A model generated the notes under the pieces. The model did not search any database, was not told where the DNA came from, and worked only from the letters and a program-made list of their open reading frames with translations. The translations under genes were made by a program, and so were the position numbers. 45,917 nucleotides of DNA from a phage: NCBI GenBank assembly GCA_014750165.1, contig GCA_014750165.1_4319.1. One strand, given 5' to 3'. Each line of letters opens with the position of its first letter. Position 1 is the stretch's first letter. This document shows, one piece after another, positions 2,418 to 22,813 of the stretch.

Positions 2418-2543
2418 ATGAAAGCAATCATCACAATTATGGCAGTGGCAGCGGCAACAACCCTTTCAATTACTTATGTTAAGTTTTGCATGTCAGTAGC
2501 TGAGAGCTACTCAATCTGGCAATTTGCAACTCATTGGCACTAA
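2418..2543 (+). CDS. small hydrophobic peptide (41 aa), hypothetical
   Basis: ATG 7 nt after GAGAGA; MKAIITIMAVAAATTLSITYVKFCMSVAESYSIWQFATHWH; below track size cutoff; own cassette upstream; approx coords. Confidence 0.3.
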   Translation: MKAIITIMAVAAATTLSITYVKFCMSVAESYSIWQFATHWH

Positions 2544-2901: not shown

Positions 2902-3221
2902 AACGAGCGGTGTATCTACAGTACCAGTCAGAGCCAACAGATGCCGAACTGGAAGCTATTGGGATGCGCCGCTCCGATTACGAAGATGAAGAGCCTGAAG
3001 TTTTACACTTCGACGAAAACATGATGAAGGCGTGGGACATTTACTGTTCAATGGCTACGCAATGGCGAGTCGGAGCTAACGGAGCTACAGGCCTAGATTA
3101 CAACGTGCTAAATTTCCTCTTTAGAGTGTATAATGTTTCTGAAGAAGAATTGGTACTCAGCGATTTACGCATCCTTGAAGCTAAGGCTCTTGAGATGATG
3201 GATAACCTGAGAAAAAAATAA
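2587..3221 (+). CDS. tail assembly chaperone G-T fusion by programmed -1 frameshift
   Basis: Second ORF (track 2910..3221) is in -1 frame relative to 2587..2901 and has no independent ATG; slippery site A AAA AAC at 2892..2898 immediately before the frame-0 stop. Confidence 0.55.
2892..2898 (+). promoter_or_regulatory. -1 ribosomal frameshift slippery heptamer A AAA AAC
   Basis: X XXY YYZ heptamer in frame with upstream ORF, followed by TAA; -1 reading continues into 2910..3221 frame. Confidence 0.55.
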
Positions 3222-3256
3222 CCCGCTTCGGCGGGTTTTCTATTATGGAGGCTTAG

Positions 3257-6241
3257 ATGGCAACAAATGAATTAGCCGGAATCACACTAGCCGTAGACGT
3301 CTCGCAAGTAGACAGGGGCACGCAATCCCTACAGAAGTTCAGGCAAGCTAACCAGCAAGCCGCTTCCGGCATTAGTGAATTCGTCAATGCTGAGCAGGTT
3401 GCTAAAAACCAGGCAAGAGACACAGCTCGCGCACTGGCTGAACAGCAAGCATCTTTAGCTAAATTGCAAACAGCTATCGACCCAACGGCTGCAAAGTTCC
3501 GCAAGCTGCAAGAGGCCGCAGTGGGTCTTGATAAGGCATTCGCGGCTGGCGTAGTTCCTGATGAGGAATTTTTCCGATTAGGCGAGGCGATTGAAACGCA
3601 GAACGCAAAACTTGCTCGCTCACGTGCAGCGCTAACTGAAGAGGGAAGAGCGGCTGCTCAGGCTGCAAAGGATAAGGCAAAAGCGAAGGCTGAAGCTGAT
3701 AGATTCATTGCATCACTTGAGCGTCAGGCTCAAGCAGCGACATTGACGCGAGAGGAGTACCTAAAGTTACAAGCGGCCCAGCTTGGAGTTAGTTCCCAGG
3801 CTGCACCAATCATTGACAGAATCGCCGACGCATCACAGAAGGCAAATACCCAGTTAATTGCTCAGAGTAAGGCTTTTCAGAAATCAGGATTAAGCGCCGG
3901 GCAATACAAGAATGCCATATCTCAACTACCAGCGCAGATTACTGATATTGGCACGTCGCTTGCTGGCGGAATTCCGATTTGGCTTATTGCAATTCAGCAG
4001 GGCGGGCAAATTAAGGATGCTTTTGGTGGTATTGGCAACACCTTTAGATTCGCGCTTGCGGCCTTAAATCCATTCAATGTTGCTGTTGGTGTTTTGGGTG
4101 GGGCTCTTGTGGCTCTTGGTGTTGGTGCGGCTCAGGCTGAAAGTGAATTCAGGGCGTTAAACTCCGCAATTGCGTTCTCAAACAACTCTACAATCGCATC
4201 AATCTCTCAGGTTAGAGAGTTGGTTAGCTCTGTTTCTGATGCAACGGGTGCCACCAGAGGACTTGTGACTAGCATCGCAACAAGCCTTACTGAGCAAGGG
4301 AACCTTACGCTGACGCAGATTGACAAGATTACTAAATCGACCGCAAGATGGGCGCAGTTGACAGGTAAGGATGCGAAGGAGATTACTGGTTACTATAACC
4401 AGATTGCGAGCGACCCAATACAGGGTTTAGTTGATTTGGATAAGCGCTTTAACTTCCTCACGCAGGGGCAGTTGACGACAATCGAAAACCTGAGAAAGAC
4501 AAAGGGAAAGGTTGAGGCTGTTACCGCCGCAATTGACATTTTCAGCAAGTCGCAGGAAGCCAACCTTAACGACATAGCGGCGCAGTTAACTCCGCTTGAG
4601 CTAGCCTGGAATGATTTCAGAAAGTACATCTCTGATATCTGGGATGCAATTAGTCGTAGAACGGTTGGGGCGCTAAACCTTTTTGTTGATGTAATCGCCG
4701 GAACGATTGAACAGATTAGGGTGTTCATTAACCAGGGCGACGTGCTGATTGGTGAGTTTGTAATCAGTGCAACGCAAGCGCTGCAAAACATCCCTGGTCT
4801 TGGCGATGCTGGAAATAATGTAATATCTGAGCAGCAGAAGATTATCGATGCTGCCAAGAGGCAAAACCTTGAGCTGGAAAAGTCCATCAGGGAGAGAGAT
4901 GCCAGAATCAGAGAGGGAGAACTTGGTTACGTTACTCGCAGGGAAAATCAGAATACCAATGAGCAATCAGGGACCGATGAGGAATTCGCAAAAAGGAAGA
5001 AGGCACTTCAGGATGAGCTTGACGCGATCAAGAAGAATAGGAAAGAGAAAAAAGGGAGGGTTAAGGAGCAAAGGGATTTAACAATTGGTTACGAATCTGG
5101 CGTGTTGGCACTTCAGGCCCAACTCAAGGTGCTTCAGGAAAACAGGGATGTTGGCGCAGTAATAAGCAATGAGCGCAATCAGTACCTTCAGGAAGAGGCT
5201 AAATTCAGGATTCTTGAGCAGAGGCAGCTTGATGGCTCGATTACCAAAGAGCAAGCAAGACTTCTCATTGAGAAGGATAAAGTACTAGAATTGGCAAGGC
5301 AGAAGGCTGAACTTGGCGACCAGATTGTTTTGCAGGAGCGAGCCAATAAGTTAGCTGAAGATAACCGTAAAAAGATCCTTCAGATTAACAATGAAGCAAG
5401 TAATATCGACTTGGGTGCTGGCCTGTCTTCTCGGGAGCAGCAGAGACTTAAAGAGATACAGGCACTCAAATCAAATCAGGAAAACGCTGGTGGATCTGTC
5501 AATGACGTTGATTTCCAGCAATTACTGGAAGCAAGAAAGGAATATTACAAGCAGGAGGATAATCTTAGATCAGACTGGCAATCCGGTGTAACATCCACTC
5601 TCGCCGACTTGACAGAGAAGTACACTGACTACAACCAGATTGCTAAGGACTTAACCGTTGCGGCATTTGACGGGATAACAGAGCAAATTACAAACCTTGT
5701 AACCACTGGTGAGACGAACTTTAGGGAGTTCACCGCAAGCATCCTCAAAATGATTGCGAAGATTGCAACTCAATTGCTTTTGGTTAAGGCTATTGAATCT
5801 ACAATCAAGAGCTTTGGTGGTGACACTGGTGCAGGTAGCGCTTTCGAGTCAATAAAATCAGCAATTGGTTTTGCTGGCGGTGGCTACACTGGTGATGGTG
5901 GGAAATATCAGCCAGCAGGAACCGTACACCGCGGTGAGTTTGTATTCACAAAAGAAGCGACAAGCCGAATTGGTGTTAAAAACCTATACGCACTGATGAA
6001 AGGTTATGCAAACGGCGGAGCGGTTGGTGGTCAATCTGGTTATGCTAATGGCGGCTTGGTTTCTAGTGGCTCAGATGTTAATGTTAGCGGCATCACTGTT
6101 AACGTAAACTCGGGTGTAGGTAGCGATCCGGAACAAGCTAAAGCATTGCAGAGTGGCGTTAAGGCAATAGTAGCGGAAGAGATTGCTCAGTCTTTCCAGC
6201 AAGGCGGCCGTGCTTATGCTTACCTTCGCGGATTCAACTAA
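3257..6241 (+). CDS. tail tape measure protein
   Basis: 994 aa, Ala/Gln-rich coiled-coil N-terminal two thirds, hydrophobic segment (GGIPIWLIAIQQGG...), Gly-rich C-terminus; position after G/GT. Confidence 0.85.
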   Translation: MATNELAGITLAVDVSQVDRGTQSLQKFRQANQQAASGISEFVNAEQVAKNQARDTARALAEQQASLAKLQTAIDPTAAKFRKLQEAAVGLDKAFAAGVVPDEEFFRLGEAIETQNAKLARSRAALTEEGRAAAQAAKDKAKAKAEADRFIASLERQAQAATLTREEYLKLQAAQLGVSSQAAPIIDRIADASQKANTQLIAQSKAFQKSGLSAGQYKNAISQLPAQITDIGTSLAGGIPIWLIAIQQGGQIKDAFGGIGNTFRFALAALNPFNVAVGVLGGALVALGVGAAQAESEFRALNSAIAFSNNSTIASISQVRELVSSVSDATGATRGLVTSIATSLTEQGNLTLTQIDKITKSTARWAQLTGKDAKEITGYYNQIASDPIQGLVDLDKRFNFLTQGQLTTIENLRKTKGKVEAVTAAIDIFSKSQEANLNDIAAQLTPLELAWNDFRKYISDIWDAISRRTVGALNLFVDVIAGTIEQIRVFINQGDVLIGEFVISATQALQNIPGLGDAGNNVISEQQKIIDAAKRQNLELEKSIRERDARIREGELGYVTRRENQNTNEQSGTDEEFAKRKKALQDELDAIKKNRKEKKGRVKEQRDLTIGYESGVLALQAQLKVLQENRDVGAVISNERNQYLQEEAKFRILEQRQLDGSITKEQARLLIEKDKVLELARQKAELGDQIVLQERANKLAEDNRKKILQINNEASNIDLGAGLSSREQQRLKEIQALKSNQENAGGSVNDVDFQQLLEARKEYYKQEDNLRSDWQSGVTSTLADLTEKYTDYNQIAKDLTVAAFDGITEQITNLVTTGETNFREFTASILKMIAKIATQLLLVKAIESTIKSFGGDTGAGSAFESIKSAIGFAGGGYTGDGGKYQPAGTVHRGEFVFTKEATSRIGVKNLYALMKGYANGGAVGGQSGYANGGLVSSGSDVNVSGITVNVNSGVGSDPEQAKALQSGVKAIVAEEIAQSFQQGGRAYAYLRGFN

Positions 6242-6660: not shown

Positions 6661-7416
6661 ATGTTAAGTCCAAAGTTTGAAAATCAGTTGCAAAGTCTTT
6701 TCCCAGGCGAGATTGTGACTCTAATCCAGGTTGACGGAACCTCCTTTGGCTCTCTCGTTTATTCGTTCCATAATGAGAACATTTCATACACGCCAGAAGA
6801 GATCATGCTTGCCCAAATGAATGGCGAGCCACTGCCAGAGAAAACGATTACATTCCGTGGTGAAGAGTACGGCCCAAGACCTTTCGGCATCTCTGGCATC
6901 AATATGACTTCTGATGGCAAGGCAAACAAAGTTACGCTAACTGTATCAAACGTAGACCAGAGGATTAGCGCCTTGATTCGAACATACAACGGACTTGTTA
7001 AAGCTAAGGTTACCATATGGATTACTACGCGAGATAACATCAATGAAGACGGGAGTATTGCTGATGGAGATTATCGCAAATTCGTTTACTTCATTGAGCG
7101 ACCTAAGCAGGTTGATTACAAAACTGCGTCATTTGAGCTTAGTAGCCCGATGGATATGGATGGCATTTACATACCCGCACGGCTTGTTCAGTCTGTTTGT
7201 TATTGGGCGTCAAGGGGTTGGTATCGTAGCGGTAATGGATGCGACTACGCTGGTAATCGTTATTTTGACAAAGACGACAACCCGGTCAGTGACCCTTCTC
7301 TAGATTTCTGTGCGGGCACTGTTAACAGTTGCAAGATTAGATTCGGCGAGAATAATCAGCTTTCATTTGGTGGATGCGCAGCAGCAAGCCTTCAAGCCAA
7401 AGCGAATCAATCATAG
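6661..7416 (+). CDS. minor tail protein (lambda L-like)
   Basis: ATG 6661 after GGAGAAAATC; C-terminal Cys cluster (CYWASRGW...CDYAG...CAGTVNSC...FGGC) typical of L-like tail tip proteins; track start 6649 is a TTG inside the RBS. Confidence 0.6.
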   Translation: MLSPKFENQLQSLFPGEIVTLIQVDGTSFGSLVYSFHNENISYTPEEIMLAQMNGEPLPEKTITFRGEEYGPRPFGISGINMTSDGKANKVTLTVSNVDQRISALIRTYNGLVKAKVTIWITTRDNINEDGSIADGDYRKFVYFIERPKQVDYKTASFELSSPMDMDGIYIPARLVQSVCYWASRGWYRSGNGCDYAGNRYFDKDDNPVSDPSLDFCAGTVNSCKIRFGENNQLSFGGCAAASLQAKANQS

Positions 7417-7430
7417 CACTTTTTGTTAAG
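7413..7430 (+). promoter_or_regulatory. gene-boundary palindrome cassette, variant copy
   Basis: ATAGCACTTTTTGTTAAG followed by GCGCA..TGCGC inverted repeat; precedes HNH gene. Confidence 0.4.
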
Positions 7431-7482: not shown

Positions 7483-7968
7483 ATGAACTGGAATGAAATT
7501 TTCGAATACAGAGATGGCAAGATTTATTGGAAAGTTAGCCCTGGCAGGAGGGCTAAGGTTGGTTCGGAAGCTGGATCAAATCAAATAAAAGGGTATAGAT
7601 TTGTGAAATTTCACGGAGTTTTATATATGACACACAGGGTTATTTGGGAGATGCATAACTGTGAAATACCGCATGGAATGGAGGTTGACCATTTAAATCA
7701 CATTAGGGACGATAACAGGATAGAGAATTTAAGAGTTGTTACAAAGTCAATTAATCAGAGGAATGCATCTAAAAGAATTGATAATAAAAGCGGTTTTACA
7801 GGCGTTTCTTGGTATCCCAAATATTCAAAGTGGAATGCTTACGCGACAGTAAATTCCAAGAGGTTTAATCTTGGTTACTTTGAATCAAAGCAAGATGCCT
7901 ATGTGGCTGTTAAAAAATTTAGGTCCATAAATGATTTTCATAAAAACCATGGAGTTGATTTATGTTAA
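7483..7968 (+). CDS. HNH homing endonuclease
   Basis: MNWNEIFEYRDGKIYWK...; HNH core EVDHLNHIRDDNRIENLR; ATG 7483 after GGAGA; paralogous to 27993..28485 and 34044..34535. Confidence 0.8.
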   Translation: MNWNEIFEYRDGKIYWKVSPGRRAKVGSEAGSNQIKGYRFVKFHGVLYMTHRVIWEMHNCEIPHGMEVDHLNHIRDDNRIENLRVVTKSINQRNASKRIDNKSGFTGVSWYPKYSKWNAYATVNSKRFNLGYFESKQDAYVAVKKFRSINDFHKNHGVDLC

Positions 7969-12746: not shown

Positions 12747-12772
12747 AGGCCCCTGAAGGGGCCTTTTCTTTT
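12747..12772. terminator. bidirectional terminator between convergent genes
   Basis: GGCCCC-TGAA-GGGGCC hairpin flanked by T-runs, between the J-like gene (+) and the 12771..13742 gene (-). Confidence 0.5.
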
Positions 12773-13742
12773 AGTAGAAGTTTGGAATAAATGGAAGTGC
12801 CATTGATATATTTGTGTCAAAAGGAAACTGAGCGCCTGTCTGAGTTGAGTAGTTACCTATTACAGATCCAGGAACAGCCCTAACGGAGCCACCAGACATA
12901 CAAACTCCCTTGTATCGTAAGTTGTTATACCCTCCGGTAACTCTAGTCGTAGCGCCGCACCTAAGTAGCGGGAAGAAACCACCATTTATTGACTGATATC
13001 CATTGCTTATTTGTATAAATCCACCAAGAACGAATGGTCGTCTAACGCTTGAAAAAACAATCTGACCAGAACTATTTGACATTGTGAGCCCTGGTCCTGC
13101 TGGTGGCGGTTCATTCCTGAATATCACTAACTGAACGTAAGTGCTTGCCGCCACGTCATCTATGCCACCATAGTTTACATCACGGCACCATATTGTACTA
13201 CCATCACTCTCCAGCGACACATTTGGGTTATCCCACTTACCAAATGGTATTCCGCTAACCGGTAGCGATGCTGCCCCGTTAACCTGTATTCCTCCAACCC
13301 ATGCTGCTGACATTAGTCTCGAGTTGCTTGATATGGCAAGGAAATCAGTTGAGTTCTCAACGAGTATGCCTGGACTTGATGAAGATGAAGCCGGTAGTAT
13401 CTCAAAGCAATTACCAGCAAAGTCAATTATTCTACCATTAGCACCATTGAAGTTGCTGAGCGTTATCCTGCCAGTTCCGTCATTTACCTTTTGAAACCCG
13501 TTCATGTAATAAACTTCGGGTATAACATCGTAAGCGTCAACGTGGACTGCCTTCGTTGGTAGGCAGAAAGCCGTAGAACCAGGTGACATTGTCAATCCAA
13601 AATCCCACGATATTGCTGGTGTTGAAAGTCCATTGGTATTTATTGATCCAGTCACAGCAGGTGCCCTTAATCCTGCCGTGATTTCCATCGCTGGTCTTCC
13701 GTCATTGAGGTCAATCAATATACCCTGCGGCATTATTTCCAC
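12771..13742 (-). CDS. putative tail fibre / receptor-binding protein
   Basis: 323 aa Gly/Ser/Asn-rich protein convergent with J; composition and position only. Confidence 0.35.
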
Positions 13743-13978
13743 TCCTTACTGCCGTGATCTGCAACAGAACCGCCGTAACCTCCGCCAGCTTTACTTTCAA
13801 TGCCAGCGTATCGAATATCAACCTCACCAGCAGGAACAACTACACCGCCTTTCCACTTAGCTACGCACACGCCGTTTGCTTGCGTTGCACACCAACCGTC
13901 CGGTCGAGGACCAGAAGAACAACCAACTGCCATGATTACTGCCGCTGCGATGATTGCTGATTTGATTAAGTTAGTCAT
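13733..13978 (-). CDS. small lipoprotein, Cor-like superinfection exclusion candidate
   Basis: Signal peptide with lipobox (IMAVGC); 81 aa; located next to tail fibre genes as cor is in T1/phi80-type phages; own upstream cassette. Confidence 0.45.
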
Positions 13979-14044: not shown

Positions 14045-14065
14045 TTTAGCAATTAGTGCTATTCG
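14045..14065 (-). promoter_or_regulatory. gene-boundary palindrome cassette (minus orientation), upstream of cor-like gene
   Basis: Reverse complement reads GAATAGCACTAATTGCTAAA then CGCAAGG..TGCG hairpin, TACTAT, CATCGAAACGA; also supplies stop of the MTase-like gene. Confidence 0.5.
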
Positions 14066-14735
14066 CCAAAAATACAGCTCTTGCAAATCCACGAGGTGTA
14101 AGACTGCGAATTACCTTTGTTTTCTTGCTCTTCCCGCCTAGCTTCTTGTGCTGGTCTGAGTATCCATCATTAACGTCAACTGGTGAGGCATGAGGCCATT
14201 TAAACCCATTGCCAGACCAAATGCACGTCTTCTTAGGATATGCGTCTCTTGGCTTTATTAGGTCGCTAAAAAACGGGTGTAAATCATCTTCCGGCAAATA
14301 GCCTCCGTATTCGTAAGGGTGAAACGTGTTATCAGGTTTACGCCAGAGCGATGACAGCACGCTGACTGGGTTCTCAATCATGTATGGAACTCCGTATTTT
14401 TCAGCCAGTTTAAAAGCAACCTTGCAAGTCTCTGCCGCCTCAATTTGGAAGTTTTGGTTGGCTAGGCGCTTACGCTCAAAGTGTGCTGCCCCGCTCACGG
14501 CTAAATCCGTACAGGGCGGGAATGCCATGATAAAATCAGGCTTCACATCAAAATCAAAACTGGAATCTATCCAGGCGTTAACGTATGTAATGTTCTCATG
14601 TTCAACTCTTGCGTTTAAGTAGCTATAGCTCCCGTGGTCAGACTCATCAAAGTTGAAGCAGTAGCAAGTGTGACCAGCTTCAGCCCAATCCTTCACAGCT
14701 AGACCAGAACCATCAAATAAAGACCAGATAACTAT
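14046..14735 (-). CDS. DNA C5-cytosine methyltransferase-like protein (divergent)
   Basis: Motif IV-like FPPCT and motif VI-like IENP in track ORF 14046..14696; motif I-like SLFDGSG is encoded in the same frame just upstream (to stop at 14754-14756), where no ATG/GTG/TTG exists; 14735 is a candidate ATA start 7 nt after GAGGA. Confidence 0.5.
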   Translation of the reverse strand: MVIWSLFDGSGLAVKDWAEAGHTCYCFNFDESDHGSYSYLNARVEHENITYVNAWIDSSFDFDVKPDFIMAFPPCTDLAVSGAAHFERKRLANQNFQIEAAETCKVAFKLAEKYGVPYMIENPVSVLSSLWRKPDNTFHPYEYGGYLPEDDLHPFFSDLIKPRDAYPKKTCIWSGNGFKWPHASPVDVNDGYSDQHKKLGGKSKKTKVIRSLTPRGFARAVFLANSTNC

Positions 14736-22307: not shown

Positions 22308-22781
22308 TTACCCTTTAGCTTTTCGTGCTGCCTCGTTAGCGGCCTTAATCTTGCGCCATGATCGACACTCTGGCTTGGTGGCTAACTCAGCCTCAGTAAC
22401 CACGCGTAGCATGTGACGCTTTTTGCACCGGAGTGTCAGTGGCTTGCCGTTACCGTCAAATTGCAGGTCTGGTCGGCAGAATGTAGCACGAAAACCCTCT
22501 CCGTTTCGTTTGTAGTAGTTGTGCGACAGTTGAGCACCGCGCGCAGAAATCATACCACGCTTAAACCATTCTTCTACAGCCTGCGGAGTTACCTTTAACT
22601 TCTTTGCAATATTCGCCTTTGTGACGAAGAAATCAAGGAGCATCTCAAGCCGCGCGCGTAGCCCGGCTCTTACTTCATCTTTTAAAACGTAGTAGCCTGA
22701 AGGTCGTTTACGTTGTTTTTTGTCTTCAGTGCGGATAGTTCCGTTATTACCGTTAGTGGTTCGCTTGTCAACTGCATTCAT
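22308..22781 (-). CDS. HTH DNA-binding protein (putative transcriptional regulator)
   Basis: Basic N-terminus and helix-turn-helix-like segment KKLKVTPQAVEEWFKRGMIS; divergent from helicase gene. Confidence 0.5.
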   Translation of the reverse strand: MNAVDKRTTNGNNGTIRTEDKKQRKRPSGYYVLKDEVRAGLRARLEMLLDFFVTKANIAKKLKVTPQAVEEWFKRGMISARGAQLSHNYYKRNGEGFRATFCRPDLQFDGNGKPLTLRCKKRHMLRVVTEAELATKPECRSWRKIKAANEAARKAKG

Positions 22782-22792
22782 TTCATCACCTC

Positions 22793-22813
22793 AATAGCAT
22801 TTTTTGTTAAAAG
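22793..22813 (+). promoter_or_regulatory. gene-boundary palindrome cassette, variant
   Basis: AATAGCATTTTTTGTTAAAAG in divergent region upstream of helicase. Confidence 0.35.

Follow-up and report, generated by a model that had tools for sequence, protein, structure and literature searches.

What is a 41-codon open reading frame (ORF), preceded by a promoter-like cassette, doing between two tail genes of a phage? The question is raised by positions 2418-2543 of a phage DNA of 45,917 nucleotides (nt) (GenBank assembly GCA_014750165.1, contig GCA_014750165.1_4319.1), the whole of which is called the window in the following. A sequence-only reading of the window had likened the ORF to a moron, an accessory gene with its own signals, coding for a membrane peptide with a possible exclusion or toxin-like function. 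We lean slightly towards a genuine moron-like accessory gene which would code for a bitopic inner-membrane peptide, and for which a role in the envelope or in exclusion is proposed by analogy. The window is a new phage of the Drexlerviridae, a T1/Rtp-like coliphage of the Braunvirinae (Rtp/Guelphvirus) type, and its genome is complete or nearly so. The closest records are ~88% identical to it across 25 kb; phage 2725-N35 reaches ~91% identity, locally only. The kind of gene is familiar, small membrane proteins being accessory units in phage structural operons; this member is an orphan.

The ORF is found on the + strand exactly where it had been placed, with the start codon ATG at 2418 and the stop codon TAA at 2541-2543 (translation MKAIITIMAVAAATTLSITYVKFCMSVAESYSIWQFATHWH). 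It is the only ORF of at least 30 codons which lies wholly inside a gap of 250 nt. Upstream the gap is bounded by the major tail (tube) protein gene (1651-2307, + strand; Pfam Phage_tail_3, E 4.9e-68), the counterpart of which is labelled major tail protein in the records of relatives, and downstream by a tail assembly chaperone gene (2587-2901, + strand; Pfam Phage_TAC_4, E 3e-33), which starts 43 nt after the end of the ORF. The Pfam families of the flanking genes and a terminator scan thus bear out the proposed place between the terminator of the major tail protein gene and the chaperone genes. The GC content is 40.5% in the ORF and 37% in the slot between the two genes, compared with 49% for the tube gene and 44% for the genome as a whole.

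The slot was compared in relatives with near-identical flanks, and other genes were found to start at the same ATG. Most of the relatives, among them EC3a, 2725-N35 and JeanPiccard, carry the gene for an 82-residue protein with an N-terminal hydrophobic anchor and two cysteines (phrog_22925, E 2e-55); versions of 83 and 88 residues occur in IMM-001 and ACG-M12. In Rtp, AugustePiccard, MM01 and RobRod40 the slot codes for a lipoprotein of 128 residues with the lipobox LLAGC (Rtp34 family), and in a metagenome contig (L025, 1848-2243; protein P0017) for an Rtp34 relative of 131 residues in which a membrane anchor replaces the lipobox, so that the Rtp34 domain would come in two forms, a lipoprotein and an anchored protein. 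The anchor of P0017 (MKSITIALAVASIGVLAAIGHN...) is longer and looks uncleaved. The AlphaFold model of Rtp34 is a helical bundle (pLDDT, the predicted local distance difference test score, 78.6; one of five models confident) for which a search of the PDB gave no match (best E 1.8). In Phagiculus (L015, 745-1446) the slot holds the gene for a DNA methyltransferase of 233 residues which is 58% identical to the enzyme encoded at 14046-14696 of the window; since the methyltransferase gene is found at 14 kb in one phage and in the slot in the other, cassette-borne genes change position between phages.

In C119 the slot is empty. Here 73 nt separate the tube gene from the chaperone gene, and TGTTATAAT and the chaperone leader come straight after the terminator. 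According to the notes in the Rtp record, gp41 and gp40 of T1 are the counterparts of rtp33 and rtp35, which implies that the slot of T1 is empty too. Presence or absence among related phages had been suggested as a check of the gene, and this comparison gave a variable content and one clear absence. The cassette is accompanied by an ORF in every locus examined and is missing from the empty slot of C119; no syntenic relative was found which had kept the cassette and lost the ORF, the arrangement said beforehand to speak against a gene. From the arrangement in C119 it would follow that the inserted unit consists of cassette plus ORF and lies between the terminator of the tube gene and the promoter of the chaperone gene. 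To judge from the sequences compared, the gap is a polymorphic, recombination-prone accessory slot which can hold at least five different contents. An export or anchor signal stands at the start of four of the five non-empty variants, the exception being the methyltransferase.

The transcript of the tube gene probably ends at a terminator-like hairpin, AAACCCTC-TTCG-GAGGGTTT followed by a T-run (2313-2339, hairpin 2313-2332, + strand), which was found in the terminator scan and has a stem of 8 bp and a UUCG loop. The core of the hairpin, CCCTCTTCGGAGGG, is invariant across all relatives aligned, and a terminator is annotated at the equivalent hairpin in EC3a and MM01. Matches in Rfam merely graze this terminator, far below the gathering thresholds, and none covers the ORF. 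The cassette comes next, all of it on the + strand. It begins with a dyad, TAGCAC-TTTT-TGCTA (TAGCACTTTTTGCTA; 2342-2356), and 22 nt after this dyad comes a -10-like hexamer, TATAGT (2379-2384), at which a block, CTGTATAGTTAAC, is conserved in the relatives. The conserved leader CATCGAAACGA (2390-2400) is the putative start of the 5' untranslated region, and a weak Shine-Dalgarno sequence, GAGAG (2404-2408), stands 9 nt before the ATG. The 82-residue and the 128-residue alleles use this initiation region too. A mini-ORF of three codons in the leader (2402-2413; ATG AGA GAC TAA) is in another frame than the 41-codon ORF, whose Shine-Dalgarno sequence it overlaps, and is probably trivial.

When the hexamer is set at -12 to -7, the centre of the dyad falls at about -42 from the inferred transcription start, and the layout of the cassette suggests that of an activator-dependent promoter. 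Two other readings of the dyad were rejected. As a sigma-54 promoter (TGGCAC-N5-TTGC) its spacing is 2 nt too short, and TTGCTA within the dyad does not serve as a sigma-70 -35 element because the spacer to TATAGT is fixed at 22 nt. A second promoter-like sequence, TTGCAA-18-TAGAAT with the TG of an extended -10 (2524-2553, + strand; promoter scan), begins in the final codons of the ORF and points towards the chaperone genes. None of the seven loci which have the 41-codon ORF shows a change in TTGCAA or in TAGAAT; the 82-residue alleles retain TTGCAA and a TAGAAT-like hexamer (TATAAT in IMM-001), and the EC3a record annotates a promoter at the equivalent position. It should be noted that promoter-like matches in the region occur at the chance level (10 found, 10.6 expected). 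Between 2543 and 2587 the terminator scan gave nothing on the + strand, i.e., the unit is without a downstream terminator of its own. The moron-like reading therefore stands as far as it concerns an extra unit with swappable content between genes which are adjacent in C119, but not as far as a terminator belonging to the unit is concerned.

The cassette before the ORF had been called complete, and it is indeed one copy of a unit which is repeated along the genome: a dyad TAGCAC-N4-TGCTA, a fixed distance of 22 nt, a TATAGT-like hexamer, ~5 nt, the leader CATCGAAACGA, a purine-rich Shine-Dalgarno sequence and an ATG. Dyads with at most one mismatch are found 20 times in the window, on both strands, against 1.9 expected, and none of 100 shuffled sequences reached this number. 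About 13-15 of the 20 are full cassettes facing a start codon, and in ~12 window cassettes the leader CATCGAAACGA follows ~33 nt after the dyad. Nearly all of the full cassettes are in the non-structural half (the dyad sites include 14047, 14794, 15552, 17414, 25291, 25582, 29571, 33640, 34752, 36200, 36833, 37968 and 41141), and the copy at 2342-2400 is the only complete cassette in the structural module. The majority spacer of the dyad is CGAAT; the slot copy has CTTTT, as do the dyads at 7414 and 34752. The dyad at 7414-7428 precedes a gene for an HNH endonuclease among the tail-tip genes (7483-7968, + strand; HNH_3, E 5e-20, with a weak AP2 domain) and has neither the TATAGT hexamer nor the leader.

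Among the genes with a cassette is 13733-13978 (- strand; cassette at 14047), which codes for a lipoprotein of 81 residues with the lipobox AVGC (phrog_4281) and adjoins the likely receptor-binding protein gene (12771-13742, - strand). Judged by position and size, its product is the counterpart of Rtp45, which binds LptDE and excludes superinfecting phage (bioRxiv 10.1101/2025.07.07.663478). The DNA methyltransferase gene mentioned above (14046-14696, - strand) sits behind another cassette.

The factor which reads the cassette might be sought in a regulator of the Rtp52 type. The window has an Rtp52-like putative regulator (22308-22781, - strand; phrog_2856, E 2e-81, with a weak Cro-type helix-turn-helix) between the primase and helicase genes, and a degenerate dyad, TAGCATTTTTTGTTA, is found at 22795 in the upstream region of its gene. 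The original Rtp genome paper reportedly proposed conserved inverted repeats upstream of genes as sites for the Rtp52 regulator. This assignment is weakened by phage C130_2 (L026, NC_048067.1), which belongs to the unrelated genus Hungariovirus and has seven such cassettes (at 1330, 3761, 4737, 10695, 13842, 34798 and 37100), mostly of the CTTTT variant and with the leader CATCGAAACGA. A tblastn search of C130_2 for a homologue of the Rtp52-like regulator found none. C130_2 also carries a copy of the segment 2341-2401 of the window, 82.5% identical. The cassette may serve as a common currency in which phages of different families exchange genes.

The 41-codon allele is found, besides in the window, in six metagenome contigs (L007, L020, L021, L022, L023 and L024) from five assemblies, always with the same synteny; ERZ13617658, ERZ27280456, ERZ28618579 and ERZ28620751, from sewage and gut metagenomes, are among the sources. 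The DNA of the seven loci falls into six haplotypes and their protein into five variants, which are 83-93% identical to that of the window, and all have 41 codons with no indel and no stop. Parsimony gives ~9.7 synonymous and 12.3 non-synonymous events for the seven loci. The overall omega is 0.36 (binomial P 0.012), and for codons 20-41 it is 0.17 (P 0.011). The replacements are conservative, being A/T/S/V/I/M/G exchanges in the helix plus the variable residues 28-31, and the segments YVKFCMSV and SIWQFATHWH have synonymous changes only. The diversity at codon positions 1, 2 and 3 of the ORF is 0.056, 0.051 and 0.101, i.e., twice as high at the third position as at the other two; the corresponding values are 0.036, 0.020 and 0.234 for the tube gene and 0.049, 0.014 and 0.260 for the chaperone gene. 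Taken together these comparisons point, marginally, to purifying selection on the 41-residue product.

The slot as a whole is less diverged than the synonymous sites of the surrounding genes, which would in part be due to recombination. In L021 and L022, both from ERZ13617658, the slot is identical from the terminator through the chaperone start, and the tube genes are 89% and the chaperone genes 88% identical; this points to a very recent recombination. The flanks of the phages with the 41-codon allele are no closer to each other than to those of phages with other alleles. From the identical slot in the two contigs and from flanks which do not cluster by allele it would follow that the unit moves by recombination.

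The N-terminal hydrophobic helix seen by the sequence-only reading is well matched by what is predicted for the product. The Kyte-Doolittle mean over 19 residues is 1.91 (residues 3-21), and AlphaFold, using an alignment of four sequences, gives one helix from residue 2 to 39 (pLDDT 85); both predict a single membrane helix. The peptide has Lys2, an apolar stretch of 19 residues, Lys22, an invariant single Cys24 and an invariant end which is aromatic and rich in histidine. The sole cysteine, in V-K-F-C, is preceded by a charged residue at -2 and a bulky one at -1 and is not part of a lipobox. On this model a bitopic peptide would cross the inner membrane once, its N-terminus staying inside and ~18 residues reaching into the periplasm.

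How much of this could be chance? The window holds many spurious ORFs of similar size, and the length and hydrophobicity of the ORF are by themselves not beyond chance. What lifts it above chance is that it is the sole ORF in the 250-nt gap, that a repeated cassette stands upstream of it and that it is kept in six other contigs. The baseline scan also showed short, strongly hydrophobic ATG ORFs at 38249 (+ strand, 46 residues) and 34735 (+ strand, 38 residues), with Kyte-Doolittle values of 2.2-2.45.

A number of observations weigh against a functional gene. In all six frames of the window ~8% of the ATG-started ORFs of 30-60 residues are equally hydrophobic. The generic sigma-70 scan calls no promoter upstream of the ORF, and no canonical -35 element is found 16-18 nt from TATAGT. 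The duplex of the Shine-Dalgarno sequence GAGAG with the anti-Shine-Dalgarno sequence is weak (-2.9 kcal/mol). The omega of codons 1-19 is 0.66, which is not significant. When neutral histories were simulated with a transition bias, the probability of at least the observed number of synonymous changes was 0.047, or 0.066 conditioned on no stop. With an overall diversity of 0.07 the ORF varies as much as the non-coding DNA beside it (0.07-0.085). The product has no match in Pfam, PHROGs or NCBIfam, even with E up to 1-10, or in PADLOC; a profile search of 1.84 billion representatives returned only the peptide's own cluster, and a word-indexed search of 5.8 billion proteins likewise gave one cluster only. 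None of 50,697 phage records contains the allele (tblastn and blastn; only the shared first 45 nt matched), nor was it found in IMG/VR, the GTDB genomes or the complete E. coli genomes. Exclusion at the receptor level is moreover already covered by another gene, the Rtp45-like one.

Several of these points are what a decaying remnant would show, and a remnant is the alternative which survives best. It supposes that the ORF is the stub of a signal peptide or anchor, left when the body of an Rtp34-type or other slot gene was deleted by deletion or illegitimate recombination; the stub would be translated from the inherited start, have no function, and remain open by chance and youth. The first 27 nt (nine codons) of the ORF are 95.6% identical to the signal peptide of the Rtp34-type gene, which also weighs against the favoured reading and fits a deletion stub, and past codon 9 no DNA or protein similarity to the Rtp34 family is detectable. 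The N-terminal helix loosely resembles the non-lipobox anchor of P0017. At the 3' end the sequence from TTGCAA to CACTAAGT is shared with the 82-residue allele but is one base out of register, for which reason the stop falls inside CACTAAGT. What is specific to the allele is thus a core of only ~80 nt (2445-2523) with no homologue in the databases searched, and local DNA alignments of this core with eight allelic genes, evaluated against shuffled sequences, gave nothing significant. A match of 14 nt between the core and JeanPiccard (p 0.006, uncorrected) vanished with softer scoring. A patchwork or deletion origin of the ORF is on these similarities possible.

A remnant also agrees with a diversity no different from that of the neighbouring non-coding DNA and with selection tests which are marginal, a third (33%) of the simulated neutral histories remaining free of stops. 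Against it, codons 20-41 show 5 synonymous and 4 non-synonymous changes although the non-synonymous sites are 4.8 times more numerous, and all replacements are conservative. The backbones on which the allele sits differ from one another no less than from those of phages with other alleles, and the allele has recently moved between co-occurring phages; both are easier to understand if it is useful. Finally, the weak Shine-Dalgarno sequence belongs to the window copy: the other loci have AAGGA or GGGA, at about -5.7 to -6.1 kcal/mol, which is comparable to the tube and chaperone genes. We regard the remnant as a possible but distinctly less probable explanation.

A second alternative holds that the segment is mainly regulatory DNA and the peptide incidental. 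The segment would carry promoters, namely the cassette and TTGCAA-18-TAGAAT, the latter feeding the chaperone and tape measure genes, and translation of the ORF may shield the transcript from Rho. The genes in question are the chaperone gene at 2587, a second gene of the chaperone region (2910-3221; DUF1799), which is followed by a second terminator (3220-3237, + strand; terminator scan), and the tape measure gene (3257-6241); upstream of the tube gene lies the gene for the tail terminator protein (1234-1635). It agrees with such a role that conservation across all alleles is highest in the non-coding blocks, namely the terminator, the dyad, the -10-like block, the leader, TTGCAA and TGnTAGAAT, and that the final codons of the 41-residue and of the 82-residue alleles contain the -35-like hexamer. 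Third-position diversity, moreover, is lower in the ORF (0.10) than in the flanking genes (0.23-0.26), which constraint at the DNA level predicts. However, such constraint predicts no excess of synonymous over non-synonymous changes, the empty-slot phages manage with the terminator and TGTTATAAT, the extra 200 nt being unneeded for chaperone expression, and real protein genes clearly occupy the position in other phages. We consider this explanation improbable. That the ORF codes for a membrane-damaging peptide, i.e., a small toxin, holin-like or depolarising factor which aids host takeover or lysis timing and is perhaps controlled by antisense RNA, is very improbable: type I toxins and some lysis regulators typically have this size and one hydrophobic helix, and a promoter-like site on the minus strand (2593-2566) together with the bidirectional terminator (2332-2313) could yield an antisense transcript, but no similarity to toxin, holin or spanin families was found in Pfam, PHROGs and NCBIfam, promoter-like matches of the region are at the chance level and the hexamers on the minus strand fall on the conserved start and leader of the chaperone gene, and no toxin is among the allelic partners, which are a lipoprotein and a periplasmic protein.

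With the moron-like accessory gene as the favoured reading, its working may be pictured as follows. Transcription would start near 2391 from the cassette, and expression would be timed with the non-structural cassette genes and not with the late tail genes. The ORF would be translated and the peptide inserted in the inner membrane with Lys2 in the cytoplasm, a helix of about residues 3-23 and the invariant Trp/His-rich SIWQFATHWH in the periplasm. In the most speculative step the peptide would act as a second, inner-membrane factor of superinfection exclusion or as a factor blocking injection, like gp15 of phage HK97, and would add to the receptor blocking at the outer membrane by the Rtp45-like lipoprotein, which is encoded elsewhere behind the same type of cassette. 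A role in the envelope is proposed because of the export or anchor signals of the slot proteins, the cassette-driven Rtp45-like lipoprotein and the precedent of HK97 gene 15.

The idea can be carried further. The peptide could represent a new family of single-helix inner-membrane factors which block the entry of rival or sibling genomes or otherwise reprogram the envelope, and the gap a cassette-controlled slot for envelope effectors, in which recombination within the cassette and promoter flanks that the phages have in common swaps unrelated effectors (peptide, periplasmic protein, lipoprotein) to give a second layer of exclusion beside the Rtp45-type blocker. In this full form the proposal is doubtful. 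If functional, the peptide would be among the smallest phage accessory proteins with an expression unit of their own, and it would give a handle on exclusion at the inner membrane in the T1/Rtp group, phages which matter as contaminants of fermentations and laboratories and as candidates for therapy. The comparative picture is possibly more useful than the peptide itself, as a natural experiment for finding phage proteins which act on the envelope, and the genome-wide promoter-like cassette, common to an unrelated genus, is a further useful by-product. Were the ORF a mere stub, the locus would nevertheless record gain, swap and loss of accessory genes at a recombination hot spot.

The founding moron, gene 15 of HK97, codes for a small inner-membrane protein, lies in the tail operon and blocks phage entry without touching the receptor (PMC3594210). 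The claim of the sequence-only reading that structural operons rarely carry genes of this kind was overstated in view of this example (PMC3594210). The likeness to the present case is that of a single-pass inner-membrane protein gene in the tail operon of a siphophage beside the chaperone genes (PMC3594210), the membrane protein being here a predicted one; gene 15 is also absent from related phages and independently expressed (PMC3594210). The two differ in that gp15, which is related to YebO, has no sequence relationship to the 41-residue peptide (for which Pfam, PHROGs and NCBIfam give no match), that HK97 is temperate and makes gp15 from the prophage whereas the window phage is of the virulent type, and that gene 15 is inserted between the chaperone and tape measure genes whereas the 41-codon ORF lies between the tube and chaperone genes. 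As morons were defined in HK97 and HK022, they lie between genes which are adjacent in relatives, differ in composition or show horizontal transfer, and have their own terminator. The ORF unit resembles them in the first respect (C119) and in the second (GC content; the slot of L021 and L022) and departs from them in the third. For the promoter which a moron also has, the cassette is the candidate here, with the missing -35 element and the negative sigma-70 scan noted above.

Small membrane proteins of other kinds can be compared as well. The type I and other small membrane toxins (Hok, Ldr, TisB and Ibs) gave no Pfam or NCBIfam match to the peptide. T4 Imm is a small inner-membrane protein which is made early by a virulent phage and stops the DNA entry of later phages; it is about twice as long as the 41-residue peptide and has two membrane segments. 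Imm illustrates the kind of role proposed for the peptide as a functional analogy, with no sequence similarity in the libraries searched. Cor of T1 and phi80, Llp of T5 and Rtp45 of Rtp are, like the product suggested here, small envelope-targeted accessory proteins of virulent siphophages; unlike them the peptide has no lipobox and is too short for a receptor-binding periplasmic domain. In PHROGs the peptide has no match to the Cor family, and Rtp34 reaches phrog_1119 via its signal peptide only (E 0.037). Within the Braunvirinae and Rogunavirinae the systems to compare are the alleles of the slot itself, the Rtp34 proteins of 128-131 residues and the phrog_22925 proteins of 82-88 residues. 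The 41-residue product differs from the Rtp34 allele in lacking both the globular domain and the lipobox, but its ORF has the position, the terminator, the cassette, the start region and the N-terminal export or anchor signal in common with both of these alleles.

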